Positions 1,084-60,083 are shown, counted from the stretch's first letter. The stretch is 60,083 bases of DNA from a virus (IMGVR_UViG_3300004806_000027:1-60083); one strand, 5' to 3'. The notes: a model not told the origin generated them from the sequence alone. Program-made: numbers and translations.

Positions 1084-1087
1084 TGTT

Positions 1088-1315: not shown

Positions 1316-1316
1316 T

Positions 1317-1628
1317 ATGTCTTGGTTTTCACAATGGTTTCACAAGGCTGTCGAGCCGTTTGTGACCGATGCTGTTTCTCAAATTGAACACGCCGAAGTG
1401 GCCACATTGATTCCGTTTGCGGAACAATTTGCCACTTCGGCCATTCAAGCGGTTGCCAGCAATCCGACTGATTTGCATGCTGCGGCTCAAGCCATTGGCG
1501 ATGCGGCGTCCAGCACGGCTAAAGCGGCGGTTGCGGCGGGTGTAAAGGCTGGGGCGGCGTCACTGGCGGTTGCTCTGTCAACGGCCATTGCTCAAGCCCA
1601 TGGCGCGCAACAAACGGCTGGTCAATGA
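1317..1628 (+). CDS. Ala-rich hypothetical protein of the lysis cassette
   Basis: ATG 2 nt after the previous stop; its stop overlaps the next start. Confidence 0.6.
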   Translation: MSWFSQWFHKAVEPFVTDAVSQIEHAEVATLIPFAEQFATSAIQAVASNPTDLHAAAQAIGDAASSTAKAAVAAGVKAGAASLAVALSTAIAQAHGAQQTAGQ

Positions 1629-1858
1629 TTGAAGCCCTTTTATCCCTTGTCTCGACCATCGTGTCGTCCATAGGGGCGAAGATTGTTGATATGGTTCGAG
1701 ACAAGGGATTAAGGGATCATGGCCGAATTGAACAACAAGCGGTTGATTTGCAATCCGCTGTTGCGGAGGATCGAAATGCTCAAATCATTCATGATGATGT
1801 GCGGCGCATGTCTGACGCTGATCTTGACAGCGAGTTGCGCGGAAAATCCGGCGCCTAA
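1625..1858 (+). CDS. Inner-membrane spanin (Rz-like)
   Basis: N-terminal hydrophobic anchor, then a coiled-coil-like periplasmic segment; overlapped by a lipoprotein ORF. Confidence 0.7.
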   Translation: MIEALLSLVSTIVSSIGAKIVDMVRDKGLRDHGRIEQQAVDLQSAVAEDRNAQIIHDDVRRMSDADLDSELRGKSGA

Positions 1859-1991
1859 TCCAACTGCGTGCGGGTGGCTTTCCGAAGTCCATCCTGATTC
1901 AGATTTTGAATCAAGATGGACGCGTTCGGAAAAGCAATGGGCGGTTATTCACAATCGTAATGTCGAAGCCAATTGCCGGACTAAAAATTGA
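1776..1991 (+). CDS. Outer-membrane spanin lipoprotein (Rz1-like)
   Basis: GGAGG RBS at 1765-1769; lipobox LTAS-C; Pro-rich linker; two further Cys; overlaps the i-spanin 3' end. Confidence 0.75.
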   Translation: MLKSFMMMCGACLTLILTASCAENPAPNPTACGWLSEVHPDSDFESRWTRSEKQWAVIHNRNVEANCRTKN

Positions 1992-41066: not shown

Positions 41067-41834
41067 ATGAACGCGGTTGATGTGTGCAATCTTGCCTTGG
41101 CTGAAATTGGCAACCGCACGTCTATTTCATCGTTTGATGATGGATCGCCGCAAGCCAATATTGCCAAGCTGTTTTATACGCCCAAAATGCAAGCATTGGC
41201 GCGGGGGGCGCCTTGGAACGGCTGGCGCGGTCAAATTGCTTTAACGCAATTGAAATCCTACACGGATTCAAACCCGCCGCCGCAACCTTTTTTATATGAA
41301 TATGCTTGGCCCTCCGATTGTTTGGAGGCCCGGTTTATCATTCCAACTCAAACAAATACCACGGGCAGCACGGTGCCTTTGACCACGGGTCAAACGGTAT
41401 GGCAACCCGCGCAAGCGGTGGATACCACAACGCCTTTTGTGGTGGGTACGGATTACGACACCAATGGCAGTCCGATTAAGGTCATTCTGACCAATTTGGA
41501 ACAAGCCCAATTGATTTACACGCGGGATTTAACCCAAGTGCCCGATTTGTGGGATTCATTGTTTTTGACGGCGGCAACGGCTTATCTTGCGTCTTACTTT
41601 ATTAATGCGCTGGCCCGGAATGAACAGCAATTAAAAGATCAGATTGCCATTGCCAAGAACGCGATTATGGATGCTCGATCTGGATCGGGCAATGAAGGCA
41701 TTAACGATACAGACCACATACCGGATTGGTTCAAGGCTCGTATGGTGTCATCTGTGCCTTGGGCTTTTGGGTCTGCGGGCGGCTTCCCAATGAATTGGGA
41801 TAATGTGGTGTTTGCTGATGGGCTGAGTTATTAA
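41067..41834 (+). CDS. Tail tubular protein A / head-tail adaptor
   Basis: VDVCNLALAEIG, YEYAWPSDCL and WDSLF motifs. Confidence 0.9.
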   Translation: MNAVDVCNLALAEIGNRTSISSFDDGSPQANIAKLFYTPKMQALARGAPWNGWRGQIALTQLKSYTDSNPPPQPFLYEYAWPSDCLEARFIIPTQTNTTGSTVPLTTGQTVWQPAQAVDTTTPFVVGTDYDTNGSPIKVILTNLEQAQLIYTRDLTQVPDLWDSLFLTAATAYLASYFINALARNEQQLKDQIAIAKNAIMDARSGSGNEGINDTDHIPDWFKARMVSSVPWAFGSAGGFPMNWDNVVFADGLSY

Positions 41835-44800: not shown

Positions 44801-44984
44801 AGCACCGGTCGGGACAAATAATCCTTTGCAGCCCTATGCCCTTTTCACCGGGGATATTTATAACAATATCAATGATGGGCTGGGTGGGACTAAGGGGCAA
44901 ATTGCGGTCCAGCAAACGCAACCTTTACCTTTGACGGTTTTGGCAATGGTGCCATGGTTTGATGTTGGGGATAGTGCCGGGTGA
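41835..44984 (+). CDS. Tail tubular protein B / nozzle
   Basis: NAGELSPSLFGRTDL, QSADVM, YPG..YFQQR, AWSRH, GLNHLEG, QPLPLTVL. Confidence 0.93.
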   Translation: MTAPILQNALNAGELSPSLFGRTDLDKYRKGCSTLRNFFASYRGGAASRAGTAFVGQCKQGSLGNNAALPPVLIPFQYSVTQGIALEFGDNYLRFAIDGAYVTETPIPIYGFNNVSPALISVNNLWAPGDWVYASGIGGIPEVNGRLFVIGTRSPIGVTLLDPLTGGNVDATNWPLWTGGGTLARIYEVSTPYAASDLPLLKWTQSADVMTLTHPSYPPYDLTRINYNNWTLTQTSFDVAIAAPTALFASASSVTTSTTSFYYQYVATAVDAVTGQESIASPPYTVASVNISAQAGTIRINCNPVTTAESYNFYRAPVSYASPPVGGQIYGYIGTSRGVCFTDANITPDYTVSPPIHTNPFATSSVTSINVTNPGSGYSTAGVTVSISSTNGSSFAGTVVVIDGQIQWVTIDNGGHGYSTSDTLSFIDSTGSGAQGTIQVGPSTGTYPGVCAYFQQRRFYASTYNNPDTYFASQPGAFTNMDRSIPTKADDAIVGTPWSQQVNGIQWMINMPGGLVVLTGRGAWQLSGSGQSGTAITPSNQFAAPQAYTGCSPTIRPIPVNFDILYVQEKGSIVRDLSYNFFTNIYTGTDLTVLSNHLFDGHTIVRWDWCEEPNKLLWAVRDDGILLNLTYLKEQDVYAWSRHDTNGLFKSVCSISEPPVDAAYFVVQRYIPGAGVNAYYLERMNDRLWETIDDAWCVDAGLSYTQNQPETYASVLSATGTPTLQQPVLAYGGQNYSDTTYARIDDPTGSGAIGTVTVTAGAITAVGVIGTLTGYTNPKFVVVDPTNQGGGAVVNIFSLNVTTFSTSAAVLSNTAGYGQAGDVIRIGGGLLTVLSYIDSSHLSVQVVRPITQTFPNDPNNLPIPQSPGTWSIATPITTVYGLNHLEGMTVSILADGVVQAPQVVSGGTVTLSVAASNIVVGLGFTAQLQTMYLDFPAQVTVQGRRKVAYNATVRVENSGSVFEVGTNQPDQSVQPGNATVTWSNMTQFAAPVGTNNPLQPYALFTGDIYNNINDGLGGTKGQIAVQQTQPLPLTVLAMVPWFDVGDSAG

Positions 44985-45433
44985 GGTATCAAATTGTTCC
45001 CGCGCAATTAAATCACGTTTCGATGTTGGCAGATAAGCTGCGTCGGGGTGATAAATTAGAATTAACGTCCGTGGGCATGTCGCCCAATCGGGCGCTGTTT
45101 AAGGCGTTTCGTGGTAGCATTATTCGACGCACGGCATTTGTTGATGGCGACATTGCGTGCATGTTTGGGGTTGGCGGATCGGTCTTATCGGGTGTGGGTT
45201 ATCCATGGCTTTTAACGTCTGAGGCTATTGAGCGCGTGCCATTTTCTTTTGTAAGGGAAGGGCGGCGCGAAGTGGCCAAGATGCAAGCAATGTTTCCTTT
45301 ATTGGAAAATTATGTGCTGGCATCCTACGTGCAAGCCTGTGGGTTTCTTTTGATTCTGGGGTTTGATCTTGGTCCGCCCGTTGAATTTGGACCAAAGCGG
45401 GCCTTGTTTCGGCGATTTGAATTGAGGCGGTAA
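44981..45433 (+). CDS. T7 gp13-like (acetyltransferase-fold) internal virion protein
   Basis: LRRGDKLEL, PWLL, LENYV and LGF motifs; position after the nozzle. Confidence 0.8.
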   Translation: MRYQIVPAQLNHVSMLADKLRRGDKLELTSVGMSPNRALFKAFRGSIIRRTAFVDGDIACMFGVGGSVLSGVGYPWLLTSEAIERVPFSFVREGRREVAKMQAMFPLLENYVLASYVQACGFLLILGFDLGPPVEFGPKRALFRRFELRR

Positions 45434-45970
45434 ATGTGTGAACCAACTACATTAGCAATTGCAGCATTGGCAACGGCGGGTGTGGGGACTGGCGTTTCGA
45501 TCCTTGGCAATATTCGTCAAGGCGAAGCGCAGCGAGCGGCGGCAAATTATCAAGCTCAAGTCGCGCAAAATAACGCCATTATCGCCGGGGAAAAGTCGCG
45601 GGTGGCGTCTGTTGCGGGCGAACAGCAAACCGCCAATGAAGGGCAAAAAAATCGGCAAGAATTGGGGGCTATTAAGGCCGCTCAAGCTGCGTCTGGAGTC
45701 GATGTTAATTCCGGGTCATCTGTGGACGTGCGGTCATCGGCGGCGGAAACCGGACAATTAAACGCTTTAACCGTTCGATCCAATGCCGCCAAGCAAGCCT
45801 ATGGCTATGACCTTGAGGGTGCTGGGTTTCAGGCGGATTCTCAATTGGATACGCTCAAAGGCGAGAATGCGGCGGCTGCGGGACAGATTGGCGCGTTTAG
45901 TTCATTGTTAAGCGGGGCATCTTCACTATCCGGTCAAGCGGCTGGGTATAAAATGGCCGGTGTGATCTAA
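45434..45970 (+). CDS. Ejection (internal virion) protein, T7 gp14-like
   Basis: MCEP + hydrophobic N-terminus; AASGVDVNSGS. Confidence 0.85.
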   Translation: MCEPTTLAIAALATAGVGTGVSILGNIRQGEAQRAAANYQAQVAQNNAIIAGEKSRVASVAGEQQTANEGQKNRQELGAIKAAQAASGVDVNSGSSVDVRSSAAETGQLNALTVRSNAAKQAYGYDLEGAGFQADSQLDTLKGENAAAAGQIGAFSSLLSGASSLSGQAAGYKMAGVI

Positions 45971-48315
45971 TGCCCATTGCAACGCCCGACGCCATACCGA
46001 GCGTTCAACCTAACGGACCATCCGGTGGGTTTTTGAATGTCAATGCGTCTCCGGATGCGTTTGGCGCCGGGGTTGCGTCTGCTATTTCGGGATTGGGTCA
46101 ATCGGTTCAGCATGCCGGTCAAGAAGCTGGTGATATTGCCCTGAAACAACAAGGCATGCTGAACGAGACAATGGCCACAAATGCCGAAACAACTTATATG
46201 GACCAATTGTCCAAATTGAGCGCGGCGTATAAGTCAAAAGAGGGCTTGGCGGCGGTTGCGGCCCTTCCTCAATATAGTCAAGACGTTCAAGATTTACGTC
46301 AACAATTGTTAGAAACGCTGCCCAATCCTGCGGTTCAAAAAGCGTTTACCACATTGGCATTAAGGCATGAGGGTTATGCGCTTTCGGATGCCAATAATTA
46401 TTCCGCGACCCAAGTTAAAAAGGCGGACGCGGATTCCGCCCATGCGTCGGTTTTAACGGCTGTCTCAAGGGCTGGGGATTCATCCATTGCCGCCAATGAC
46501 ATGCGGTTTGAAGATATTTTGCATGACGTGAATTTTGGCGTGGCGCGTCAAATGCAAACCCAAGGATGGGATGCTGGTACGGGCATGACCCAACAAGATG
46601 ATGGGTTGTTATCATTTGACGACAGCGAAAATGGCAAGCGGGCGTCGTCCGTTTATCAATCCGTTCGAGATACCGCCGTGGGTAAGGCATGGGAAGAAAG
46701 ACTGCGCACGCTGTCCAATTCCAATGTCGATATGGCGGCAAAATTGTTTCAAGACAATCGGTCGCGCATTCCCGGCACGGCTCAAGTTCAGATTGAAGCG
46801 TTTTTGCAGCCCAAGATTAAAGACGCGCAAACCCGGTCCATTGCCGATAATGTCATTGGAACAGCGACCCAGACATTTACCAATGGGCTGAATAAAGGGT
46901 CTAATAACCCTGGAAATATCAAATCTGCTTATGGCATTGCCAATAATGTGCCGGATTTTGAAAACTATGCGACACCTGCCGATGGGGTGAACGCGACGGC
47001 ATCCAATCTTCGTAATAATTACCGGGGAATGACACTTGCGGAAATCGGGCGCAAATGGGTGGGCAAGGATCAGCCACAAAGTGAAGTGGATAATTGGGTC
47101 AATAATGTGTCCAGGGCATCCGGGCTTGCGCCCAATGCGGTGCCAAATATGGATGACAAAACGGCGGTATCGTCCTTAATCAAGGCAATTGTTCCCGCTG
47201 AAAAGGGTCAAGCGGATCGAGCGGCGTTTGACGATACGTCCGTAACGCAAGGAATCGAACAAGCTTTCGCGGGTCAAAAACCGACCAAAGTTGCAAATGC
47301 GGCTGGGAACGATAACCGGCCCATGCTGACCTCGACGGATTATTTGCGGCAGAATTATGCGGCGATTGTCAAGCAAGCGGAAGATCAAGCGGAAGCGCAA
47401 CGGCCTGGGGATCAACAATTCAGGGATTTGGCCCGGTCGCGGGTTGAGCAGAGATTGGGTGACCAAATCCGCCAACAGGAAATGTCTTATAAGGCGGACA
47501 ATGATTTGGTCGTTCAGGCTGTCAGCGGGGAATTAAACCGGACGGGTCAAAAACCCACGTCTATTGAACAACTGACCTCGATTAGTCCTGACGTGAAAGC
47601 CGCGTGGGAACGGTCAATGGCGCATTCTCCGCAATTTGCCACGAGCATTCAAACACATGTTTTGACGGCAGCGGCGCATGGAGTGAACAAAGACGCGGCG
47701 TTGTATGGCAAGGATTTTCCCGATTTGGTCGCGCAAGTTTTGGCGCCGTCACCTAATGGGCCACAAATTACCGATCCATCACAATTAATGCAGCATTTCA
47801 AAGATGGCGGGTTGAATTTTGAGGGGCTTAAGCACCTTCAAACCCTGATGGCGCAAAATGATTCCGAAAAGCAATTGCAAACAGAGTTTTTAAAAGCCGC
47901 CAAGGGTCAAATTACAGGCTCGAATGAGCACATGGGGTTTGTTGATCCCAAGGGGGATCAACTTTATCAAAATTTCTTGGGGTCATTTGTCGATGCTTAC
48001 AAAGAGGGTCGGGCAAAAGGCATTCCACCGGCCAAATTATTGAGTTTTGGAAACCCGGAATCTTTGGGCGAATTAACTAAAGGGTATGCGCGCCCGTTTA
48101 ATCAATGGCAAGCTGACGTATTGGTGGGCAATCCGCAATCGGTTGTCCCAACTCAGACGGCGCCCGTTAAAGCCGCTGCGGTGGATTTGTCCACAAAGGA
48201 AAATGTGCTAACGGCTTTCAATCAAGGCAAAATCACGCGCGACCAAGCGCGAAAAGCTTTGCTAGATAACAAATGGGCAACCGAAGCCTATAAGCCCACG
48301 GTGCCAATGCAATGA
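45970..48315 (+). CDS. Ejection protein with internal lysozyme-like domain
   Basis: Helical 781 aa; NNPGNIK...YATPADG...IKAIVPAEKG segment aligns with the endolysin. Confidence 0.85.
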   Translation: MPIATPDAIPSVQPNGPSGGFLNVNASPDAFGAGVASAISGLGQSVQHAGQEAGDIALKQQGMLNETMATNAETTYMDQLSKLSAAYKSKEGLAAVAALPQYSQDVQDLRQQLLETLPNPAVQKAFTTLALRHEGYALSDANNYSATQVKKADADSAHASVLTAVSRAGDSSIAANDMRFEDILHDVNFGVARQMQTQGWDAGTGMTQQDDGLLSFDDSENGKRASSVYQSVRDTAVGKAWEERLRTLSNSNVDMAAKLFQDNRSRIPGTAQVQIEAFLQPKIKDAQTRSIADNVIGTATQTFTNGLNKGSNNPGNIKSAYGIANNVPDFENYATPADGVNATASNLRNNYRGMTLAEIGRKWVGKDQPQSEVDNWVNNVSRASGLAPNAVPNMDDKTAVSSLIKAIVPAEKGQADRAAFDDTSVTQGIEQAFAGQKPTKVANAAGNDNRPMLTSTDYLRQNYAAIVKQAEDQAEAQRPGDQQFRDLARSRVEQRLGDQIRQQEMSYKADNDLVVQAVSGELNRTGQKPTSIEQLTSISPDVKAAWERSMAHSPQFATSIQTHVLTAAAHGVNKDAALYGKDFPDLVAQVLAPSPNGPQITDPSQLMQHFKDGGLNFEGLKHLQTLMAQNDSEKQLQTEFLKAAKGQITGSNEHMGFVDPKGDQLYQNFLGSFVDAYKEGRAKGIPPAKLLSFGNPESLGELTKGYARPFNQWQADVLVGNPQSVVPTQTAPVKAAAVDLSTKENVLTAFNQGKITRDQARKALLDNKWATEAYKPTVPMQ

Positions 48316-51300
48316 CCGATCAGCCGTCATCTGTCGATGATTTATTGGATGCGCATGCGCCGAATCAGTCAATGGACGTTGATTCATTGCTGGATCAGCA
48401 TGCGCCTGCTCAACCTGGGCCATTTTATCCGGGTGTTGATGCGCGTCTGCCAAAAGTGCCGCCTATTCAGCCTTTAGCCAATACGTCTGACCAATTTAAT
48501 CAATGGTTCAAGGGGACACCGGAAGGCAGGATTACTGATGCTTTTGTGGGCGGCGTAAAAACCGGCTGGGAAGGAATGGCGTTGTCTCCGGAAAGCGAAG
48601 ATTTCTTTAAAAAACTGGGTTGGTTTAACGATCCCAAAAAACCCAGTTTCATGGGTGGGTTTAATGATACGTTCATGCGCCCTGCGGTCATGGCGGCAAA
48701 TGCAGCTTTAAGAGTAGGTGCGGCGGGGTATAGCGGCGTCCAAGCGGGTATCGTTCAGGCGGGTGAAGAAGCCAATAATGCAACGGGTGGCGTGTTTGGC
48801 TTGAATAAGCTGGGACGGGACGTAACGGGCATTATGGACATGGAAGCCATGGGCTTTCCATTTGGGTCAAAGTTTCATCCGGCACCGGCAAAGTTTTGGA
48901 ATGATGCCATTAAGAACAAAGTCATTGGCGGGGATGACGCGGTTTATTTTGGACTGAAAGAACCTGAACCATTGGCCGATGGTGCATTGGCGGATGATTT
49001 AAAATCCAGTGTCAAACCGTTAGAAGATCAGCTTGCCGAACAAGGGGCGGCTGGGGCGGAGGCTCAAGCGACACCGGAGGCAACGCCGGTTCAAGCCACA
49101 ACGCAAGAAGCACAGCCGGATATTCATTCTATTGCGCGTCAAATTGATCCCGATACGTTTGAAAAATACGATGCTTTGGTGGCGCGGCGCGATACCTATC
49201 GCAAATGGCTCAATGAGCTGTCGGAAACGCGCGATGAAGCACACGCTAACCGGGAAGATGTAAAATCAATCAATAGCGAAATTGACGATATTTTAGCCAA
49301 GGTTAATGGTGTCGAAGATCGTTTGACCAAACGTCAAGCGGGCCGGTTATCTGATTTGCGGGATCAATTGGACGAAATTGAAAGCACGGCCAAGCTGGAT
49401 TCGCCGGACATGGCGCGCATCCGCCGCGTGCTGCAAGAAAATGATTATAAAATGCGCGATTTAGCGCCGGATGTGACAAAAGCATATCGGGAAGCGCAAG
49501 AGCGTATGCCGCAAGAAGCCGCACCGGAAGTCGAGCAAGCCGTTGATGAGGCGCGCGTTCAGGGCCGGGAGCAAGGTGAAACGGAAACTGCGCAACCGAA
49601 AAATGAAACGGTCACTGAAACGGCCAAGCCGGTCGAGACTAAACCGGGTGAACCTGCGGCGGAGGGTGTAAAGCCTGACGAGACACCGGCCAAAACAGAA
49701 TTGCCGATTGAACAACAAAAGGCGCAAATTGCCTCTAGGGTCGCGCGTCAATTGGAAGATGCCGGACGGCCAAGGGATGAAGCGGAAGCCGCTGCTCAAT
49801 TAATCGCGGCAAGGTATGAAACACGGGCGGCGCGCATGGGCGGCAAGCTGGGATCGCCGTTGGAATTGTTTAACCGGGATGGGGCCGTCATCCAAGCCGC
49901 GCGCGAACGTGTGCGGGAAATGGCGCAAAAAAAGGATCAAGCGCCGGAAATCACGGCCAAGGAATATGAGCAAGCCAAGCGGGGTTCTGTTCAATTCCGG
50001 GAAAATAAGACAATTATCAAACTGTTCAAGGGCGCCGATGCGTCAACTTTTATCCATGAAACCGGCCATAAGTTTCTAGAAGAAATGATGGCCGATGCCG
50101 TTCATGAGGCTGCACCGGATCAAATTAAGGCGGATGCTGCAACGGTGCGTAAATGGCTTGGGGTTAGCGAGGATGAGGCCATACCGACGCGGGCGCATGA
50201 AAAGTTTGCGCGCGGGTTTGAACGTTATTTGATGGAAGGCCGCGCGCCAAGCCAAACCCTAGCGCGGGTGTTTGATCAATTTAAACAATGGCTGACCAAG
50301 ATTTATGAAACCGTGACCCGGCTGAAATCGCCTATCAATGACGATATTCGGGACGTGTTCGATAGGCTTTTGTCAACCAACCCGGAAAAGGTTACAATAG
50401 CGCCGGATCGTGCTTTGGGGGCTGATTTTGCAACGCTGCATGAAGGCGATGCGGAACACACGCCGGGGAACCAAGCAAAGGTCGTTGGCGATAGGGTGCG
50501 TGATGAGCGTCACGCGGTAGCTGATGAACATGCTTCGGAGATTTCGGATGAATTACAGCCTGGAAGAATTGGAAACGGACCTGGCGAAAGCCCGGCACGA
50601 AGTGAAGGTGCTGACAGTGGCGTCAATGCGTCCGGACCTGACACCGGAACAAATGGCGCTATACAAAAATCTGGAACGGTCGGCGCGGGCGGAGGTCAAG
50701 CTAAGGTTGAAGGCATTGGACCACCACAAGAGTCAAACCTAAAATTTGGCCCTAGTTCAAAGCAAAAGCTTTATTCCAAGGTTCCTGCGCGCCCTTCGAC
50801 GCTAACCGATTTTGTTCGATCTTATGGCGGAATTGGCAATGATCGGGGCGATATTGCGGCATTGTTTGGTGGCAAGCGTAATGGCGGGGTGCTGCGCAAA
50901 ACGGGCAAAGATATTGACCGGGTGGCGCAAGCGGCGGAAGAAGCCGGGTTTTTCCCTGAATTGGGCGGTGAACGTCCCACGATTAATCAATTTTTGGAAA
51001 AGCTAACCCGTGACGTAAACGGGGACCATCAATTCTCCGATTTTGATTATGACAAGGTTAAAGCCTATCAGGATGCTTTAAACCACAATTCCGAAGTGGA
51101 TCGAATTGCCGGGGAATTGGGCATTAAAGCGGACGGCATGTCGCATAGCGAGTTCTGGAATGAAGTTGCCAGCCGCATGTCAACCGAAGAACAATTAAAG
51201 GAAATTCATTCTCAGGAAGCGGATTTTGAGCGCGAATTGCGCCACGCGGAAGAATGGGCCAAGTCTCATTTAGAAGCCAAAGGCGATGCTTGGGAAGGTG

Positions 51301-53792
51301 ATAACGTGCCGGATTACGACAATCCGCGCACCGAGGAGGATTTGGAAAATGAATACCGGGCGGAAGAATCTGCTAGAGGGCCGATCAAGAGCGCGGATGA
51401 TGGCGGGCAATCAGGACCTGCCGGAGGAGGTGCGGTCGATGTTCAAGAAAGCAGCGGATCACGCGGACGCAGCACTAGGTCTAATGGGAGCAAGACAGAA
51501 TACCCAGCCGGACCCAATGAGCGGTTCGCAACCGATGAATCAGACCTTGTAGATAAGGCCGGGAATATCCGGTTAGATAATCTCAATACACCGGAAGATG
51601 TAAAAGAAGTTTTGCGTCAAACGGCGGCGGATAATGAAGATTTCATGGCCGCACGGCGGGGCGTGATTTCTGCCGGGGAACAATTGGACCTGGCCGATGC
51701 TTTGGGCATGAATGCGGCAAAACTCAATTGGCGCCGGATCGGGGAAGCGTTCAACGCCGAACAAATCCTTGCGGCTCGAAAGCTGTTAATTCAATCTGCG
51801 ACGGAAGTGCGTGATTTGATGGCAAAAGCGGCCAATGGATCGGATGCCGATGTGATGGCCTATGCCAAAGCGCGGCAACGTCACTTGATGATTCAAGAGC
51901 AAGTGGCGGGGATTACGGCGGAAGCTGGCCGGGCGTTGGGAGCATTCCGTAAGCTGGAAGGGTCGGCGGATGCCGAAGCGTTGGCGCAATTCTTCCAAAG
52001 CACCATTGGCCGGACACCGGAACAACTAAGGCAAGAAGCGCAATTTGGGATGAACCTGCAAACGCCGGGACAAGTGGCCAAGTTTGTTAATGATTCCGCC
52101 CGTGGGTCGATCAAAAACGCCATATTGGAATATTACGTTAATGCTTTGATTTCGGGGCCGATAACCCATGCCCGGTATTCGGTGGGCAATGCGTTAAATG
52201 CCTTGGCGCGTCCTTTGATCGAAATTCCGGTGGCGTCTGCGGTCGGCGCGGCGCGCGAGGCTTTGGGCTATGAGGTCAAAAATCGAGTTTATTTAGGTGA
52301 GGCGGGCGCGCAATTATACGGCATGATGAAGGGATCATCCGATGGCTTAATGGCGGCAACGCAAGCGTTTAAAACCGGCATTTCCCCTGCATTGCCTGGG
52401 GAAAAGGTATCTGGTCATTTTACCGATATGAACACGCGGGCCATTCCGGGCAAGGTTGGCGAAATTATCAATGTGCCGTCCAAATCGGTTGCGGCCATTC
52501 ACTCGTTTTTTAAATCCCTGCGATATGAGCAAAACATTCAATCTTTGGCCTATCGGGAAGCCATGAATGATGGTTTGACCGGGGATGCGTTCAAAGGACG
52601 GGTTGCGGAATTAACTCAAAAGCCGACACCGGAAATGATGATTGCTGCAAGTGCGGATGCCATGAAAGAATTATTCATGGCGCCTGCGGATTACAATTCG
52701 TTTTCAGGGAAATTAACAGCTGCGGCCAATTCAAACCTAGCGGCAAAAATCATTGTGCCGTTTATGAAAATTGGCACCCAAATAACCCGCGAAGCATTTA
52801 TTGAACGCTCGCCCATTGGCTTATTGGATAGGGACGTGCGCGGCAATTTGTCCGGGCAAAACGGCGGGTCTGCTCAAGACATGCAATTTGGCAAAATCGC
52901 CACCGGCACGGCTTTAATCGGTACATCCGTCATGATGACCTTAAATGGGTTGATGACCGGGGATGGCCCTGCTGATCCCAATGAGCGCCGTGTGTGGCTG
53001 ATGGCCAATAAACCCAATCACATTACCATTGGCGATGTGTCGGTGGCCTATGACCGTCTGGGGCCGTTTGCCATGCTTATGCGGTTTGGGGCCAATATGA
53101 CCGAAGCCGCGCATGGCTGGGATGGTGAAGATGGCACGGTTTTAGCCAAAGCGGCGTTTGAAGGGTTTAATAAAGCGGTGTTGGATGAAACCTTTATGAA
53201 AGGATTGTCTGACATGCTGAATGCGGTGTTTCATCCGGAAGAATATGGCGAAAGCTATATTCGAGGGATGGTCATCAATTGGATGCCGTTTAGCGTTGGC
53301 ATGAGTCAAGTGGCTCACGCGGTCGATCCGTATCAACGCGAAGCGCGGACCTTATTGGATGCCGCCAAGGCCAAGGTGCCGTTTGTCTCAATTGGCCTAT
53401 TGCCCAAACGAGATATGTTTGGCGAACCAATCCCGCAAAGTGGCACGGCGGATCGTTATGCCAATGATTCGGTGGTTAAGGAAATGAACGCCTTGGGTCT
53501 GGGGGTTGGGAAATTGCGCCGGTCAATCCGAGGGCAGGATTTGACCGATGAGCAATATGACCAATATGCCCAGACGGCGGGCCGGTTAGCCAAAATGCGA
53601 TTAAACGCTTTGGTTCAAAATCCGGGCTGGCAGCAAATCCCCAAGAATATCCGGGCGGAAACCATCACCAAAACGATTTCATCCAGCCGGACGGCTGCGG
53701 CAAATATGATTGCGGCTCAAAGTGTCGGGGGGCCAAACGACATTATCAAAGGTGCAATGGAAGATAAAATGCGGGCTAGGAATGGCGAATAG
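48312..53792 (+). CDS. Giant (1826 aa) ejection / polyvalent protein with zincin-like motif
   Basis: ADASTFIHETGH...HEKFARGFE.YL.EG motif; C-terminal helical/membrane region (IVPF, RDMFGEP) typical of large podovirus ejection proteins. Confidence 0.85.
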   Translation: MTDQPSSVDDLLDAHAPNQSMDVDSLLDQHAPAQPGPFYPGVDARLPKVPPIQPLANTSDQFNQWFKGTPEGRITDAFVGGVKTGWEGMALSPESEDFFKKLGWFNDPKKPSFMGGFNDTFMRPAVMAANAALRVGAAGYSGVQAGIVQAGEEANNATGGVFGLNKLGRDVTGIMDMEAMGFPFGSKFHPAPAKFWNDAIKNKVIGGDDAVYFGLKEPEPLADGALADDLKSSVKPLEDQLAEQGAAGAEAQATPEATPVQATTQEAQPDIHSIARQIDPDTFEKYDALVARRDTYRKWLNELSETRDEAHANREDVKSINSEIDDILAKVNGVEDRLTKRQAGRLSDLRDQLDEIESTAKLDSPDMARIRRVLQENDYKMRDLAPDVTKAYREAQERMPQEAAPEVEQAVDEARVQGREQGETETAQPKNETVTETAKPVETKPGEPAAEGVKPDETPAKTELPIEQQKAQIASRVARQLEDAGRPRDEAEAAAQLIAARYETRAARMGGKLGSPLELFNRDGAVIQAARERVREMAQKKDQAPEITAKEYEQAKRGSVQFRENKTIIKLFKGADASTFIHETGHKFLEEMMADAVHEAAPDQIKADAATVRKWLGVSEDEAIPTRAHEKFARGFERYLMEGRAPSQTLARVFDQFKQWLTKIYETVTRLKSPINDDIRDVFDRLLSTNPEKVTIAPDRALGADFATLHEGDAEHTPGNQAKVVGDRVRDERHAVADEHASEISDELQPGRIGNGPGESPARSEGADSGVNASGPDTGTNGAIQKSGTVGAGGGQAKVEGIGPPQESNLKFGPSSKQKLYSKVPARPSTLTDFVRSYGGIGNDRGDIAALFGGKRNGGVLRKTGKDIDRVAQAAEEAGFFPELGGERPTINQFLEKLTRDVNGDHQFSDFDYDKVKAYQDALNHNSEVDRIAGELGIKADGMSHSEFWNEVASRMSTEEQLKEIHSQEADFERELRHAEEWAKSHLEAKGDAWEGDNVPDYDNPRTEEDLENEYRAEESARGPIKSADDGGQSGPAGGGAVDVQESSGSRGRSTRSNGSKTEYPAGPNERFATDESDLVDKAGNIRLDNLNTPEDVKEVLRQTAADNEDFMAARRGVISAGEQLDLADALGMNAAKLNWRRIGEAFNAEQILAARKLLIQSATEVRDLMAKAANGSDADVMAYAKARQRHLMIQEQVAGITAEAGRALGAFRKLEGSADAEALAQFFQSTIGRTPEQLRQEAQFGMNLQTPGQVAKFVNDSARGSIKNAILEYYVNALISGPITHARYSVGNALNALARPLIEIPVASAVGAAREALGYEVKNRVYLGEAGAQLYGMMKGSSDGLMAATQAFKTGISPALPGEKVSGHFTDMNTRAIPGKVGEIINVPSKSVAAIHSFFKSLRYEQNIQSLAYREAMNDGLTGDAFKGRVAELTQKPTPEMMIAASADAMKELFMAPADYNSFSGKLTAAANSNLAAKIIVPFMKIGTQITREAFIERSPIGLLDRDVRGNLSGQNGGSAQDMQFGKIATGTALIGTSVMMTLNGLMTGDGPADPNERRVWLMANKPNHITIGDVSVAYDRLGPFAMLMRFGANMTEAAHGWDGEDGTVLAKAAFEGFNKAVLDETFMKGLSDMLNAVFHPEEYGESYIRGMVINWMPFSVGMSQVAHAVDPYQREARTLLDAAKAKVPFVSIGLLPKRDMFGEPIPQSGTADRYANDSVVKEMNALGLGVGKLRRSIRGQDLTDEQYDQYAQTAGRLAKMRLNALVQNPGWQQIPKNIRAETITKTISSSRTAAANMIAAQSVGGPNDIIKGAMEDKMRARNGE

Positions 53793-53884: not shown

Positions 53885-54664
53885 ATGCGCTTGTCCGCCG
53901 TGTTTAAAATTCTGGTCTTTGTTGTACTGGGACTGATTGCGGACCCGGTATTTTCGACCGTTTCAACCACGTCAAGTTCGACCACGGCGCAAGGAAATGG
54001 GGTTACAACCTCGTTCACCTATAATTTCCCCATGGTGTCGGCTGGGGATGCGGTCATCACAGTATTAAATACCAATGTCACTCCCAACACTTTGACCACA
54101 TTAACGCCAAGCCAATACACCCTGACAGGGGTTGGAAGCATTGGCGGGACGGTCACTTATCCCTTAACCGGATCGCCATTATCGGCGGGATATTACATCA
54201 CGATTTCGCGTGTGGTTCCTTTGGTTCAAACGGTGTCGATTTCCAACCAGGGGCCGACATTTAAGGCGATTGAGGGCGGGTTAGATTACCTAACCTATAT
54301 CACTCAACAGCTTCAAAGCCAGATTAATTCACTATCCGTGTCCACCACAACGTCAACGGCCAATGTGGGGCGCCAAATCACATCTGGGTCAACGGATACC
54401 GCAATTCCGTCTCTAAGCACGATTGCTTGGAAAAGTGCCACGGCTTCAAACAAGACCGAAAATCTTTACCAATGCACGTCCACTTATATCTGGAACAAAA
54501 TTACCGTTACTGACGAAATTGGCACGGCTCAAACCTACAATATCGCTGTGACGCCTTATTCCGGGGACACCATTTTAGGGTCCACGTCCGCTTTTAACCT
54601 TCGATCCAATTTTGCCAGTGCAACGCTGCAATGCGATGGCGCGGGCAATTGGTTTGTTCAATAG
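53885..54664 (+). CDS. Tail-fibre adaptor (T7 gp17 N-terminal-like domain) preceded by a signal peptide
   Basis: TVSTT..GNGVTTSFTYNFP..Y...GGTVTY..TISRVVP..Q..IEGGLDYLT..QQL domain; N-terminal MRLSAVFKILVFVVLGLIADPVFS|. Confidence 0.88.
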   Translation: MRLSAVFKILVFVVLGLIADPVFSTVSTTSSSTTAQGNGVTTSFTYNFPMVSAGDAVITVLNTNVTPNTLTTLTPSQYTLTGVGSIGGTVTYPLTGSPLSAGYYITISRVVPLVQTVSISNQGPTFKAIEGGLDYLTYITQQLQSQINSLSVSTTTSTANVGRQITSGSTDTAIPSLSTIAWKSATASNKTENLYQCTSTYIWNKITVTDEIGTAQTYNIAVTPYSGDTILGSTSAFNLRSNFASATLQCDGAGNWFVQ

Positions 54665-54671
54665 GTGGTTT

Positions 54672-57023
54672 ATGAGTTCAAATATTCAATCGCCTAATGT
54701 CTTTGTCTATGCCGGGAATCCAAACGGGCATGTTGCCGGGCAGCAAGGTGTTGCCGGGGGTGTACCGCCCGATTTCTGCTATGACGTGACCAATCGGGCT
54801 TATTATGCATGTGTCACCACGGGAACCACGACAAGCGCGGGCTGGGTCGCGGTATCTGGGGCTGGGGTCAATTCGGTTGGCCTATTTTTGCCCACGGCTT
54901 TATTTGGTATTACCGGATCGCCCGTCACCACGTTTGGCACTTTAAGCGCGTCGTTTATTTCGGTGTCCAGCCAAACATTTTTGGCGGGGCCGGGGAATGC
55001 GTCCACGGGTGTCACCGCGTCTCCGACATTTCGGAACATTCAAGATCAGGATTTGCCGCGCAATCTTGCGTATTATGGCGGTATTTCGACTTATGGGTAT
55101 GACAATACGGTTGCGGTCACAACGGCGATTGGCGCCAATACAAATGGCAGCATTTATGTTCCCGTTGGGCTTTATACCACAACCATAACCGCGTCATCGG
55201 ATGGCGGAAGCTCGACGGGTGGTGCGACATATCAGACTTGGCCGAAATTAACGGCAAATTTCTATGGTCAAGGGCAAGTTGCGTCTTTGGCGTTGGATGG
55301 CTCGCAATCCAAGCGCGGCAAATTTTATTCAATGGTCACAATGCAACCGGACCTGACTAATTTTGCTTTGGCCGATAATACCAAATATTTTAACGGGGAT
55401 TGGTCGCGCCAGAATTTTTCCATTGAACATTATGTCACCGGCCTAAACACGCTGGGGGGGTATTCAACCGGTATTTATTACATGCCGCAAACCTTTCCCT
55501 TTGCTTTGTTTATGCGGAACTATTCGGGCTGGAATAGCAGCACGGATTATACCGTTTTTGGCAATCCGTTGACGCAACGGACAAGCGCCGTTGGCATGCA
55601 ATTAAATGTCTATCAGGACAATAAGGGCGATTGCGCCGCGTTGAATGTCAATGTTGGCATTTCGGCATTGGCCAAGCCCACAATTACGTCCGGCGATGCG
55701 ACTTATGGGTTTGCAACGTGTCCTGCCGTTTCAATCATGAACGGCGGGGCCACGTCTTACAAAGATGGCACGTATCTAAACCCGTTTGAATTTGATTACA
55801 CCAATCTTTCTGGCACCACATCTTATGACGTGGCATGTATCGGTTGGTTTCATAGCATGCTGCGAGCCGGGTCCAGCACGTCGCAATCCACTTTCTACAG
55901 CGGAACCACGACGACTGTTGGTTACGGCAATACGTGGATTGGCTGGCTGATGGATTCCAGCGGAACCAATGTTATTGGCGGGTCTACTGTAAAATTTCCG
56001 GTGGACGCGGGCATTTCGTTTAAAGGTCTGTCCGGGTATCGCGCGGCAATCGACTTGACCCAAGCGCACCGATATAATCCTGGCACCAGTGCATCGATTG
56101 TTTTGGCCGATTCCGCTCGCATTTATTTAAACGGATCATATGGGGCGGGTAAAGCGTTTCCAGATTCCACAATGAATCCGGGGACGGCTTATATTCAATG
56201 CGTGTCTGGTCAAGTGGGCATTTTGAGCGGCGGAACGTCCAGTGCTTATATTAACATTGACGGCACGGGCGTTCTGGCTGGTTTGACGTTAAATGGACGC
56301 GCCACATTTACCGGGGGCGGTGGTTATGCGGCTGTGTTTGGCGGTCATTTGGCTGGGTTATCTGACAATGCTTACACATGCGGCACGGCGGCGGGCCGGT
56401 GGTCTGCGGTGTGGGCTGTCAATGGCACCATTCAAACATCTGATCCAAGTTTAAAAACCGATATTGAGCCGGTTTCGGATGTGTTGCCCATCATTAAATC
56501 CCTTGAACCAAAGACGTTTAAGTGGATTGCCGGTGGACGGGATGAAATTGAAGTTGAAGAAGATCAACTTGTTCACGAAAGCGAAGTGTCTGAGGGCGTT
56601 GTTCACGATATTCAAATTGTGGACGGCAAGCCGGTTGCGTTTGACCGGATCGTTAAAACGGAAACTGGCGTTTATGACTTGATGCCGGTGGTTGATGCCG
56701 ATGGCAATCCGGTCATGGAATTTGTGCCGGGCAAAAAAGGCGAGCCGGGACAATTGCAGCAAAAAATGCACCCTGTCCCGCGCATGATCGCAAAAAAGGT
56801 CAAAGTTAAAAAATTTGTGGATCGTCCTGGCAAGCGGACCCATTGGGGTTTCTTGGCTACCGAAGTGCGCGATGCGTTTGCCGCCACGGGCAAAGATTTT
56901 GCCGGATATGTGCAAGACGAAGATGGCACACATCATTTGAGGCCGGATCAATTAATTCCGGTGTTGTGGCAAGCGGTGCGTGAACTCACTGCCCGGCTTG
57001 AAGAATTGGAGGCCAAAAAATGA
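54672..57023 (+). CDS. Tail spike/fibre with C-terminal S74 intramolecular chaperone
   Basis: GTIQT-SD.SLK cleavage site, HWGFLATEV, LRPDQLIPVLWQAVRELTARLEELE; no signal peptide. Confidence 0.9.
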   Translation: MSSNIQSPNVFVYAGNPNGHVAGQQGVAGGVPPDFCYDVTNRAYYACVTTGTTTSAGWVAVSGAGVNSVGLFLPTALFGITGSPVTTFGTLSASFISVSSQTFLAGPGNASTGVTASPTFRNIQDQDLPRNLAYYGGISTYGYDNTVAVTTAIGANTNGSIYVPVGLYTTTITASSDGGSSTGGATYQTWPKLTANFYGQGQVASLALDGSQSKRGKFYSMVTMQPDLTNFALADNTKYFNGDWSRQNFSIEHYVTGLNTLGGYSTGIYYMPQTFPFALFMRNYSGWNSSTDYTVFGNPLTQRTSAVGMQLNVYQDNKGDCAALNVNVGISALAKPTITSGDATYGFATCPAVSIMNGGATSYKDGTYLNPFEFDYTNLSGTTSYDVACIGWFHSMLRAGSSTSQSTFYSGTTTTVGYGNTWIGWLMDSSGTNVIGGSTVKFPVDAGISFKGLSGYRAAIDLTQAHRYNPGTSASIVLADSARIYLNGSYGAGKAFPDSTMNPGTAYIQCVSGQVGILSGGTSSAYINIDGTGVLAGLTLNGRATFTGGGGYAAVFGGHLAGLSDNAYTCGTAAGRWSAVWAVNGTIQTSDPSLKTDIEPVSDVLPIIKSLEPKTFKWIAGGRDEIEVEEDQLVHESEVSEGVVHDIQIVDGKPVAFDRIVKTETGVYDLMPVVDADGNPVMEFVPGKKGEPGQLQQKMHPVPRMIAKKVKVKKFVDRPGKRTHWGFLATEVRDAFAATGKDFAGYVQDEDGTHHLRPDQLIPVLWQAVRELTARLEELEAKK

Positions 57024-57415
57024 AATGGTTAATTGTCGTTTTTTGGCTTTTGGTATCACCGGCTTTTGCCCAAACTGCGGCAAGCGTTGTTCCAAGTAAG
57101 ATTTCAACGGTTGGATGCCCTGGCAGTCAACCAAGCTGCACGGTGTCCACGGCATTTGTAACGCCATTGGGGTATCAGCAAATCACCTCATTGTCTGGGG
57201 CAACGTTTTTGACCGTGCCGACCGGGGCGACATTGGCTGTTATCGTGGTTGAAACACAATCTGTTCGGTGGCGCGATGATGGTGTGGCACCAACTGCATC
57301 TGTTGGCATGCTGGTCGCGGCGGGTTCTGCTTTGTCTTACACGGGCAATCTGGCTTCGTTGCAGTTTATTCAAACGACTGCAAGCGCCACTATCAACGTG
57401 AGCTATTACAAATGA
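57020..57415 (+). CDS. Small beta-sandwich tail-associated protein with signal peptide
   Basis: MKWLIVVFWLLVSPAFA|Q; VRWRDDGVAPTASVG...NVSYYK. Confidence 0.8.
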   Translation: MKWLIVVFWLLVSPAFAQTAASVVPSKISTVGCPGSQPSCTVSTAFVTPLGYQQITSLSGATFLTVPTGATLAVIVVETQSVRWRDDGVAPTASVGMLVAAGSALSYTGNLASLQFIQTTASATINVSYYK

Positions 57416-58902
57416 TGAAGCGGCTTGCTATTGTTTTATTTGGCTTGATTGTTTGCGTTCCCGCAATTGCTCAGCAATTGGGAAATAGTGGAATTGTGAT
57501 TTCGTCGGGGGCGTCAAGTGGTGGCAGCGGATCGGGTACGGTTACGTCTGTGACGTGTTCGACCAATGGCGGCTTAACCTGTACGGCCAATCCGATCACC
57601 ACAAGCGGATCAATTGCGCTGGGAACCAATGTGGGTGTGCCGGGATATACAAGTTCTGGCGCAACGGCGTTTCAATTTACCGGAAACGCCAATAATTTCT
57701 ATCAATTGAGCCTTCAAAATACCAATAGCGGATCAAGTGCCTCATCTGACTTTGTTGTAACGGCGGACGATGGCAATGATTCAACGCATTATGCGGATTT
57801 TGGCATAAATAATAGTGCTGGGGCCGCAGCTCCGTTTACAGCTGCTCATGCGGCTTATACTTATACTACAGATGGTGAATTTGACATTGGTGCGCTTGGA
57901 ACCGGGGGCGTTATCAATTTTTATTCCGGTGGGGGGACTGTTTCGCCAACAAGCGTTGGCAGCATAACGTCAACCGGTTTGAATAGCATGGCGGTGGGCG
58001 TCACAACGGCCAGCACGGGCAAATTTACCACTCTGCAAGCAACGTCCACGATTACATTCCCGTCAAATAGTCTGACTTTGGCAAATTTGCCGCAAATTAC
58101 GGCTAACACGATTTTGGGGAATAACACCGGGTCAACGGCTAACATTGCGTCTTTTGCCATTCCATCTTGCTCGGCTGCGACCAGTGCGCTGACTTGGACC
58201 ACAAGTACGGGGTTTGGCTGCAATACTATTTCGGGCGGATCGGGTACGGTCAATTCCGGTACGTCCGGGCAATTGAGTTATTACGCCTCAACCACAAATG
58301 CCGTGTCTGGTAATGCCAATGCAACGATTTCCAATGGTGCTTTGACTTTGGGTCAATCAACGGGGCCGGTTGGCGGATCGTTGATAATGCAAGGTGCCAC
58401 AAGTGGCGCCACAACGATTGTTCCCACAGCGGTGGCCGGATCAACCACGGCAACCTTACCAGCTAATACCGGAACCATTGCCGAATTGAATTTGGCGCAA
58501 ACTTGGACGGCGGTTCAAACGTATAACAATTCAACAATAAAGATTTTGGGGTCATCGACGGGCGCTAATACATTGACCATGGCAAACGCCGGAGCGTCCA
58601 ATTTTACAACAACAATTCCAGCTGTGAATGGCACGGTAATCACTTCTGGGGATACCGCAACGGTCACTTTACCGATGCACGCTACACAATCAGCAAATAC
58701 GGTGGTGGCAAACGTCACCGCTTCAACCGCAAGCCCAACTGCTGCAACCTTACCATCATGTACGGATACGGGTGGCAATCATTTAAATTACACAAATGGC
58801 ACCGGTTTTTCTTGCGGAACATCATCTAGCGGAACAACGGCGGCTTACATTCAAGCTGCGTCTGTGTCCGTGCTTATGGGGTCTTTTGGAGGCATAAAAT
58901 GA
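57412..58902 (+). CDS. Ser/Thr/Gly-rich fibre-like protein with signal peptide and three Cys pairs
   Basis: MMKRLAIVLFGLIVCVPAIA|Q; GSGTV repeats; STGKFTTL; duplicated ANT...PSC..C unit. Confidence 0.85.
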   Translation: MMKRLAIVLFGLIVCVPAIAQQLGNSGIVISSGASSGGSGSGTVTSVTCSTNGGLTCTANPITTSGSIALGTNVGVPGYTSSGATAFQFTGNANNFYQLSLQNTNSGSSASSDFVVTADDGNDSTHYADFGINNSAGAAAPFTAAHAAYTYTTDGEFDIGALGTGGVINFYSGGGTVSPTSVGSITSTGLNSMAVGVTTASTGKFTTLQATSTITFPSNSLTLANLPQITANTILGNNTGSTANIASFAIPSCSAATSALTWTTSTGFGCNTISGGSGTVNSGTSGQLSYYASTTNAVSGNANATISNGALTLGQSTGPVGGSLIMQGATSGATTIVPTAVAGSTTATLPANTGTIAELNLAQTWTAVQTYNNSTIKILGSSTGANTLTMANAGASNFTTTIPAVNGTVITSGDTATVTLPMHATQSANTVVANVTASTASPTAATLPSCTDTGGNHLNYTNGTGFSCGTSSSGTTAAYIQAASVSVLMGSFGGIK

Positions 58903-59381
58903 ACGCGCGTCAATTTTATTGTAGTTCGGCCCTTGTATTATCACTTGTGGGCATTGCAAGCGGGGTCAATGCAGCAACGACGCCCAATAGCGTTGTAACC
59001 GTTCAAACGCCTACGTTGGGCCTTGTGCAATCCAATGCGGCTAACAATGTGACGATTTACACGGCTGGGGCCAATGGGTCGGCGTGTTTTTCGTTGACAG
59101 CGGCAAATACTTGTACGTCCACGGCTTACAATGTGCAGGTTTTTGTGACCCGATCAGCGGTCAATTATTATCAAACAACGGTTGCTATCCCGGCTGGTGC
59201 CGGTGCGGTTTCGACTGCGCTTAATGTCAATATGTTCAATTCTGCAACTTGGCAGGGTTTGCCATTGGACAATTATGGAAATCCATATTTGTTTTTGAAA
59301 AGCGGCGATACGTTGACGGCGACTCCGACCGTTTCCACGTCAACCTATATCAATCTGACCTCTGTTTGCGGTGATTTCTAA
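58899..59381 (+). CDS. Beta-sandwich tail-tip-like protein with signal peptide
   Basis: ...LVLSLVGIASGVNA|A; IYTAGANGS...YLFLKSGDTL...GDF. Confidence 0.8.
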   Translation: MNARQFYCSSALVLSLVGIASGVNAATTPNSVVTVQTPTLGLVQSNAANNVTIYTAGANGSACFSLTAANTCTSTAYNVQVFVTRSAVNYYQTTVAIPAGAGAVSTALNVNMFNSATWQGLPLDNYGNPYLFLKSGDTLTATPTVSTSTYINLTSVCGDF

Positions 59382-59382
59382 A

Positions 59383-60083
59383 ATGCTTAAGAATCTTCGC
59401 TTTGGATTAATTGCGCTTTTATTCGCAATTGGTCAGTTAGGCTTTGCGGTTGCAACGCCGTTGAATGTTGCGCCTGGGGCGGGTCCCGCTGCTGGCAAAG
59501 CATTTATTGGCCTAAGCGGTCTTAATTATCAAGTTGCCTACACGGCAAGCGGGACATTTAATCCGGTCACGCAAGGCAAAGGGTATGGCGTTTATTACGT
59601 TTTACTTGTTGGCGGGGGTGCTGCTGGCAATGGCACCCCTGCAAGTGGAACAGAGGGCGGCGGCGGCGGTGGTGCTGGTGGCGTTGAATTTTTCCCCGTC
59701 TACATTGGGTCTAGTGCAACCATAACAATTGGCGCTGCTGGCGCTGCTGCAAGTGGTGCAATTGGCGGTAATGGCACAGCTACCACGTTAGTTGTTGGTG
59801 GTGTCACTTACTCAGCCGGTGGTGGCCTTAATAAAGCGCTTGTTTATCCAGGGGGCATGTCTGGTGGCGGTGGCCCAGGTGGTATTTATAGCGGCACGAC
59901 AGCTGCGGACGGGGGTTATCCGGGCGGGGGTGGCTGCGGTCAGCGCAATTTAGGCACAGTCTATCAAGGCGGTTATGGTGCAGCCTCATTATTTTCAAGT
60001 TCATCTTTGGGGGGATCGGGCGCAGCTTCCGGCACGGCTGGTGGTGGTGGTGGTGGTGGGTACTTAGGCAAAGGTGGCGATGG
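59383..60083 (+). CDS. Glycine-rich tail-associated protein, N-terminal part, with signal peptide (not in track; completes at 451)
   Basis: Hand translation MLKNLRFGLIALLFAIGQLGFAVA|TPLNV...YTASGTF...VLLVGGGAAG...GGGGGGAGG; open to the window end. Confidence 0.88.
   Translation, partial: MLKNLRFGLIALLFAIGQLGFAVATPLNVAPGAGPAAGKAFIGLSGLNYQVAYTASGTFNPVTQGKGYGVYYVLLVGGGAAGNGTPASGTEGGGGGGAGGVEFFPVYIGSSATITIGAAGAAASGAIGGNGTATTLVVGGVTYSAGGGLNKALVYPGGMSGGGGPGGIYSGTTAADGGYPGGGGCGQRNLGTVYQGGYGAASLFSSSSLGGSGAASGTAGGGGGGGYLGKGGD
59772..60083 (+). repeat. Terminal overlap, copy 2
   Basis: Matches 1-315 with a divergent central patch. Confidence 0.95.

Follow-up and report, generated by a model that had tools for sequence, protein, structure and literature searches.

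Tailed-phage particles are taught as purely cytoplasmic assemblies. In the described systems closest to the locus studied here, namely the T7 gp17 N-domain (7boz), Carin-1 (8ck1), the Dpo31/Dpo36 tailspikes (28lx, 28mg), CBA120 TSP4 (7rej, 7rfo, 7rfv) and the T4 baseplate chain 5iv5_AC, the protein starts at its anchor directly after Met. We analysed the viral record IMGVR_UViG_3300004806_000027, a single contig of 60,083 base pairs (bp) taken whole as the window, and describe a six-gene tail module (genes A to F) in which gene A likewise encodes an anchor, followed by a TSP4-like docking domain, but begins with a 24-residue Sec-type leader. As in anchor-and-branch receptor-binding systems, gene A sits after the internal virion proteins and before the spike gene. 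None of the parts is of a new kind: the anchor is of T7/epsilon15 type, the docking domain of TSP4 type, the spike of S74 type and the fibres Ser/Thr/Gly-rich. What is new is a Sec leader on both the anchor and the fibre module, combined with paired cysteines.

Proteins that phages export are well known, among them spanins, signal-anchor-release endolysins and lipoproteins such as T5 Llp and lambda Bor and Lom. These too are phage-encoded and carry host Sec signals, but none is a virion tail part, whereas here the leader stands on the tail anchor itself and on the whole fibre module. Bdellovibrio fibre proteins, which are secreted phage-fibre-like adhesins of bacteria, are likewise trimeric, fibre-like and equipped with signal peptides; they are, however, chromosomally encoded cell-surface proteins that have no tail anchor and do not belong to a phage late operon. 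The accessible text of PMC12309495 mentions Lom, and the 'signal peptides' of extracellular contractile injection systems are described, in the accessible portion of that literature, as cargo-loading tags. In full-text literature searches, and in the accessible portions of PMC12309495, PMC5723332, PMC3556154, PMC12210884 and PMC12923769, we found no description of Sec leaders on tail fibres.

The genes of the module are as follows (aa, amino acids):

Gene A, 53885..54664, plus strand: 259 aa; 24-residue Sec-type leader (53885-53956), anchor (53957-54340), then a helix and a docking domain (about 54470-54658) with Cys197 and Cys250
Gene B, 54672..57023, plus strand: 783-aa tailspike or fibre; no leader; seven Cys; phrog_28871 and phrog_1171 (tail spike)
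Gene C, 57020..57415, plus strand: 131 aa; 17-residue leader (57020-57070), Cys33/Cys40, then an 85-aa domain
Gene D, 57412..58902, plus strand: 496-aa Ser/Thr/Gly-rich fibre; 20-residue leader (57412-57471); three close Cys pairs
Gene E, 58899..59381, plus strand: 160 aa; 25-residue leader (58899-58973); jelly-roll body; Cys63 and Cys157
Gene F, 5' part, 59383..60083, plus strand: 24-residue leader (59383-59454); Gly-rich body without Cys; leaves the contig end
Gene F, 3' end, 1..451, plus strand: reached through the terminal overlap of the contig

An initial annotation of the window had read leaders on five of these six consecutive tail-region genes, and the open reading frames (ORFs) at these positions were confirmed. 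Predicted cleavage separates MRLSAVFKILVFVVLGLIADPVFS from TVSTT in A, SPAFA from Q in C, VPAIA from Q in D, GVNA from A in E and GFAVA from T in F. Spike B (54672) is the only gene of the six without a leader, and the S74 chaperone attributed to it was recovered as a match to Pfam PF13884 (Peptidase_S74) at residues 590-623 (56439-56540), which scored 36.8 bits against a cut-off of 22 and covered profile positions 1-35 of 58.

Leaders were called with a home-made heuristic: the n-region had to be positively charged, the hydrophobic core free of charge and about 8-18 residues long, and positions -3 and -1 occupied by small residues. Among the 94 ORFs of the genome, this rule called 11: A, C, D, E and F, and six others, of which two were weak calls and four were the spanin lipoprotein, a further lipoprotein, a secreted 162-aa protein and a membrane protein. 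No call fell on a portal, capsid, tail-tube or internal virion protein. The chance of at least five leader genes among six consecutive ones is 8e-6 at a background of 6/88, or about 7e-4 after 89 windows of genes are allowed for. A lipobox ([LVI][ASTVI][GAS]C) is absent from all five leaders, the Cys in the D leader being preceded by Val; within the scan, only a 114-aa lipoprotein (15916-16260, minus strand, lipobox LGAC) has one. The twin-arginine motif RR of Tat signals is also absent, the five n-regions being MR, MK, MMKR, MNAR and MLKNLR.

B, C and D each end in a stop codon that overlaps the start of the next gene (C, D and E, respectively) as ATGA, and F starts two bases past the E stop; read through the terminal overlap of about 312 nucleotides (nt), F encodes about 279 aa. 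Promoter-like and terminator-like sites did not rise above the level of shuffled sequence, which, together with the ATGA overlaps, suggests one late operon.

The tail anchor and its leader

Gene A matches 12 PHROG tail or tail-fibre families (best E value 4e-23). Every match starts at residue 25 or 28, and 10 of the 12 families align residue 25 to profile position 2. A profile built from A and five relatives found, in the PDB, residues 2-125 of the Dpo31/Dpo36 tailspikes (28lx, 28mg, 8ck1; E value 4e-20), with residue 2 of chain 28lx_A aligned to residue 25 of A, and residues 196-258 of A matched residues 111-174 of 7rfv, 7rej and 7rfo (E values 3e-5 to 4e-5). The AlphaFold2 (AF2) model of A, with a predicted local distance difference test (pLDDT) score of 81.4, opens with a helix (residues 3-17), after which two beta domains flank a long helix. 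Searched with Foldseek, this model found the Carin-1 tail-fibre anchor (8ck1_B, E value 5e-8), T7 gp17-N (7boz_b, E value 0.018), the N-terminal domains of CBA120 TSP4 and the T4 baseplate chain 5iv5_AC; the docking domain aligned to TSP4-type domains with E values of 2e-4 to 8e-4 and root-mean-square deviations of 2.5-2.9 over about 100 columns. The Cys pair of the docking domain is absent from the aligned PDB chains.

These profile and structure matches confirm the gp17-N-type domain that had been proposed for A. TVSTT had further been named as the sequence that follows Met in leaderless relatives, and homology does begin at residue 25 of A, the equivalent of residue 2 in those proteins. The anchor domain starts at precursor residue 25 instead of residue 2 and would reach its native position only after cleavage. 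By these homologies, A is predicted to be a true virion-type anchor joined to a docking domain; the genome has no other tail-anchor domain. Between codons 7 and 49 there is no in-frame ATG, GTG or TTG, which excludes a leaderless A isoform made from a usual start codon.

Hydrophobic leaders are present in 9 of the 15 non-self relatives of A: seven anchors and two proteins (P0011 and P0014) that have the A-type C-terminal domain behind a different N-terminal domain. The six leaderless relatives start directly with M-T-[VIL]-S. The leaders have no sequence in common, and all eight aligned leader-bearing anchors have small residues at -3/-1 right before T-V-S. The pair Cys197/Cys250 occurs in eight leader-bearing proteins (six anchors and the two with the other N-terminal domain) but in none of the six leaderless ones.

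Across IMG/VR loci with an A-type anchor, a leader was found in 1 of 18 (L020); metagenome loci with a visible N terminus had one in 4 of 24, one of these being the same contig as L020, and three further metagenome loci, cut at the contig start, stand outside the 24. L020 is a 62-kilobase (kb) viral contig of high guanine-plus-cytosine (GC) content, in which at least five further fibre-like genes with leaders lie downstream of the leader-bearing anchor. None of them is a homologue of C to F; only the anchors match (1e-15). Among downstream ORFs of at least 120 aa, 8 of 13 had leader calls after leader-bearing anchors compared with 12 of 116 after leaderless anchors, a comparison that includes only two informative leader loci and hints at a module-wide leader switch. 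A counter-example is L011 (13513-17518), where a leaderless, Cys-free anchor of 327 aa has two downstream proteins (595 and 701 aa) with leaders and eight Cys each. Leader-bearing fibre-like genes make up two of six behind this anchor, and mixed modules thus exist.

Leaders and cysteine pairs in the fibre families

The mature regions had been described as carrying their Cys mostly in pairs. The counts were borne out: A and C have two each, E has three, and D has three close pairs, at 49/57, 253/270 and 450/468. D and E each have one more Cys inside the leader, and F has none. Spike B has a close pair in its N-terminal domain, Cys36/Cys47 (54777-54812, residues 36-47), of the type seen in the exported proteins of this module; its oxidation could take place only after release. 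A fibre motif said to be common to D and B was found in its strict form (G.V.SV..P.TT.G) in D only, B having the looser V.SV..P.TT.G, and neither form occurs in any other ORF of the genome.

C, D, E and F had no match in Pfam, PHROGs or NCBIfam. The Atlas neighbours of C and E are viral-only clusters of hypothetical proteins, the nearest clusters being 83-100% viral, and structural matches cover the mature parts only (residues 25-160 of E and 42-131 of C). We found leader-bearing relatives in the families of A, C, D and E, as expected if the leaders are conserved in homologues. The leaderless relatives of C, D and E (for E, P0151-P0169; for D, P0056 and P0122; for C, the 96-aa gene of MW202577.1) have the same domains, and the residues that follow their Met are those that follow the predicted cleavage here, but they have few or no Cys.

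The E family comprises 33 sequences, E included. Twenty have a leader that ends just before a conserved ATTPNS, and 13 start with M-ATTPNS. All 20 leaders obey the -3/-1 rule at the boundary set by homology, and the pair Cys63/Cys157 is present in 19 of the 20 leader-bearing sequences but in none of the 13 leaderless ones. In the family tree, the leader-bearing sequences form one 19-row clade (96/94 support) plus P0153 alone, indicating that the leader was kept through deep divergence though its sequence changed completely. The model of E is a jelly-roll (pLDDT 85.5) with weak matches to the cement protein of phage KHP40 (E value 5e-4, template-modelling scores 0.49/0.60), tail fibres of Agrobacterium phage 7-7-1 and TNF-like lectins, which point to a predicted jelly-roll and no more.

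The D family yielded 237 matches, and the best 120 of them, with D itself left out, gave 119 relatives. Ninety of these bear a leader, with a median of 6 mature Cys and an even count in 89 of the 90, and the remaining 29 have a median of 2. Related fibres in IMG/VR occupy 80 loci, 75 of them with a complete 5' end; Cys density is 1.17 per 100 aa in the 20 with a leader and 0.20 in the 55 without. D had no match among cultured phages, possibly owing to the low-complexity filter, and the fibre protein P0086 matched them in its C-terminal domain only. Both forms are also seen for a second fibre N-terminal domain (..QSG.VT.GH...W...GVIQDGG..), which stands behind a leader in P0086 and ten others; a domain of this QSG.VT.GH type directly follows Met in L118 (10001-11461, 486 aa, no Cys).

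The 85-aa C-terminal domain of C was found in 3069 representative metagenome clusters at E <= 0.001, with no Pfam or PHROG model matching it; it defines a large unnamed viral domain family, with P0170-P0319 among the best relatives. The best 150 of the 3069 include 56 leader calls, about 7 of which are false calls that the heuristic made within the domain. The median number of mature Cys is 2 in these 56 (two in 23, four in 10, none in 18, odd numbers in 5) and 0 in the 94 without a leader (none in 66, odd numbers in 23). Where any Cys is present, the count is even in 33 and odd in 5 with a leader, compared with 5 and 23 without. Against 50,697 cultured or deposited phage records, C had one match, a leaderless 96-aa gene of MW202577.1 that lies between likely capsid and tail-tube genes, roles that we read from position, the products being annotated as hypothetical in the record.

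F has neither a relative among the viral contigs searched nor a family. We considered whether the leaderless anchor P0013 is fused to this same Gly-rich body and rejected this (BLASTP E value 0.69).

By sequence comparison, then, four unrelated families (A, C, D and E) each appear in two states, leaderless and Cys-poor or leader-bearing and Cys-paired. The leaders recur with unrelated sequence and the same design, and they covary with Cys, which argues that they are selected features. This bears on the notion that the leaders are an artefact of wrong start codons, or chance hydrophobic N termini on ordinary cytoplasmic fibres. Such an error is conceivable in that the leaders were called with a home-made predictor only, but A has no alternative start in codons 7-49, leaders have been kept with diverged sequence in relatives of four families, they go together with Cys pairs, and a run of five is improbable by chance; we regard an artefact as hardly credible. 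The leaders might also stay uncleaved and tether the fibres to the inner membrane on its periplasmic side. Hydrophobic N-terminal helices can be signal anchors, and the AF2 model has such a helix at residues 3-17 of A. However, small -3/-1 residues are found in 28 of 28 leaders at boundaries defined by homology, and the hydrophobic cores are short (about 10-15 residues), making this arrangement very unlikely.

Probable export and a possible two-compartment assembly

The comparative evidence from the four module families strongly supports the export with oxidative folding that the initial annotation had proposed, and we consider it highly probable that the leader-bearing proteins are actually exported, cut at the domain boundary and disulfide-bonded. 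Whether they then enter virions at a late stage is a more evenly balanced matter, with the chances just short of even; this step is suggested by topology and by the order of lysis. Taken as a whole, with late joining included, the chain of events proposed below could equally well hold or fail. It draws on two further groups of genes:

Tail tube A and B and internal virion proteins, 41067..53792, plus strand: all leaderless; phrog_394, phrog_376, phrog_418 and phrog_6651
Tail tube A, starting at 41067: PHROG match
Tail tube B, starting at 41835: PHROG match
Internal virion proteins, starting at 45434 and 48312: PHROG matches
Lysis cassette, 458..1991, plus strand: directly downstream of the fibre genes
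Small membrane protein, 458-676, plus strand: holin-like by position and one hydrophobic stretch only
Endolysin, 649-1083, plus strand: soluble, without a membrane segment; phrog_873, E value 1e-48
Spanin-like lipoprotein, 1719-1991, plus strand: phrog_1275 (Rz-like spanin), E value 3e-7

In this proposal, the host-recognition apparatus would be built in two compartments. A, C, D, E and F would be translated as Sec preproteins from the late operon of spike B and would cross the inner membrane, where signal peptidase I would cut exactly at the start of each conserved domain; A and C to F would then fold in the periplasm, and their Cys pairs would be oxidised there. The cytoplasm would keep the capsid, the tail tube, the internal proteins and spike B, which has an S74 chaperone of its own; the leaderless tail tube and internal proteins would be the partner for A to sit on. 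The two sets would meet only after the holin opens the inner membrane. The endolysin has no membrane segment, which implies that it depends on holin holes large enough for proteins.

Fibre addition is the final step of podovirus assembly, and fibres can be added last in vitro, as with P22 tailspikes onto heads and T4 long tail fibres onto fibreless particles. These cases resemble what the proposal needs, in that fibres join finished particles without cytoplasm, and differ from it in that both partners are made in the cytoplasm. The accessible text of PMC10865782 gives the order holin, endolysin, spanin as established and reports that, when spanins are missing, the cell ends up as a sphere still enclosed by an intact outer membrane; its references include work on 'micron-scale holes'. 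During the interval between holin action and outer-membrane rupture, periplasmic fibres and cytoplasmic particles would mix at high concentration, and A would dock on the tail tube, and the other parts on A, either before or just after the outer layers are broken by endolysin and spanin.

The topological problem would be removed if the leaders were inefficient, with a retained cytoplasmic part of each protein building virions and an exported part having a second role. The leader of A fits such a dual fate in that it has a Lys within the hydrophobic stretch and Ser at -1, and it looks weaker than the leaders of C and D. Against this, the retained protein would bear an unprocessed 24-residue hydrophobic extension on the N terminus where the anchor domain of leaderless relatives starts, and the conserved Cys pairs and even Cys counts point to an oxidised functional form. 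We consider a dual fate quite unlikely.

Alternatively, the leader-bearing proteins may be exported for uses outside the virion: to block or mask receptors (for superinfection exclusion or to protect progeny from debris), as decoys, or as adhesins of the lysogen, with B alone, or B and something unrecognised, equipping the particle. C to F match no known virion family, B has no leader, and phages do export non-virion proteins, this genome having a spanin, a lipoprotein and the secreted 162-aa protein. Loci with a leaderless anchor may, moreover, carry leader-bearing fibre-like genes, as in two of six at L011. However, A in the periplasm would meet no tail, and the particle would be left without an anchor, since A is the sole anchor and its domain is well conserved; cleavage recreates the native N terminus of leaderless anchors; and the genes are translationally coupled to the spike gene. 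These same points argue for a virion role of A. The clusters nearest to C and E are 83-100% viral, and in MW202577.1 a leaderless C-type gene lies amid genes whose positions suggest capsid and tail-tube roles. The secreted adhesin or decoy that the initial annotation had offered as an alternative thus fits A badly and is compatible with C to F, which have no family assignment. Overall, we judge these non-virion uses unlikely, though well short of negligible.

Several findings weigh against export followed by late joining. We know of no precedent in tailed phages for a meeting of tail parts from two compartments, and the leaderless B means that the model needs parts from both. The virion place of C to F rests on position, composition and viral-only look-alikes, in place of a family assignment. 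There is no close cultured relative, and the fibre of the best tail-tube match is leaderless. The exported set is not richer in Cys: A has 0.8 per 100 aa and F none, compared with 0.9 in B and 1.14 in all ORFs. The leader-bearing anchors P0007 and P0016 do not have the A Cys pair, though their C termini differ, and P0153 has a leader but not the E Cys pair. The association of leader and Cys in the E family is essentially one evolutionary event, so that its Fisher P value of 2e-8 is inflated. At least four Cys are present in 11 of the 29 D relatives without a leader call, some of which may be truncated gene calls, and of the 56 leader calls that the heuristic made in the C set about 7 are false.

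We tentatively propose, with odds somewhat below even, that the whole receptor-binding set, anchor included, is Sec-secreted, disulfide-bonded in the periplasm and joined to finished cytoplasmic particles within the seconds that separate the opening of holin holes from spanin-driven rupture of the outer membrane, and that many uncultured phages from soil and fresh water, with tails of several types, share this route. If true, there would be a late extracytoplasmic assembly step tied to the lysis programme, fibre stability would rely on host Dsb enzymes, and Sec, signal peptidase and DsbA would be host determinants of phage yield. Receptor-binding proteins of this class would misfold when expressed in the cytoplasm for structural work or engineering, and they would be mislabelled by annotation pipelines in which a signal peptide counts against a place in the virion. 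In metagenomes the pattern is frequent: it is present in 90 of the 119 best D relatives, 20 of the 75 fibre relatives from IMG/VR and roughly one in three of the best 150 C relatives; its near-absence from cultured phages (for C, 1 of 50,697 records) would explain why it has gone unnoticed so far.

Genome context and neighbouring genes

The genome is that of a complete temperate podophage with T7-like morphogenesis. Its remaining landmarks, all PHROG matches, are as follows:

Portal, starting at 28559
Protease/scaffold, starting at 36413
Major head protein, starting at 37267
Integrase, 7984-9036, minus strand

Bases 1-96 of the contig equal 59772-59867 exactly, and the last 30 nt match 286-315; these terminal repeats indicate a complete genome of about 59.8 kb that is circularly permuted or terminally redundant. 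The middle part of the overlap, inside the Gly-rich repeat of gene F, diverges, with 127 mismatches in an ungapped comparison. Either two variants were collapsed in assembly or this is a true internal repeat beside the genome ends.

By tail tube B, the nearest cultured phages, at only about 34-36% identity, include the Caulobacter phages SR18, Jess A and RapA, a Vibrio phage and Pelagibacter podophages. Among the viral contigs searched, no relative was found for the C-terminal 499 aa of the internal protein of 1826 aa. A copy of gene A that is 100% identical (L002) lies on a 59,714-bp contig labelled as a metagenome-assembled genome of a Beijerinckiaceae bacterium. The GC content of the phage, about 51%, is well under that typical of Beijerinckiaceae, and the label may therefore not name the host.

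The 162-aa exported protein called by the heuristic (1981-2469, minus strand) has the leader MKNALLALLALMFIAPPAMA and several Cys and matches no family. Between the portal and the scaffold and capsid genes, an unusual location, lie a two-part glycosyltransferase-like gene of 561 aa (31846-33531, plus strand; phrog_14945 and phrog_1574) and an exonuclease-like gene (33539-34906; phrog_284). Glycosylation of the virion by the product of 31846-33531 is a possibility.

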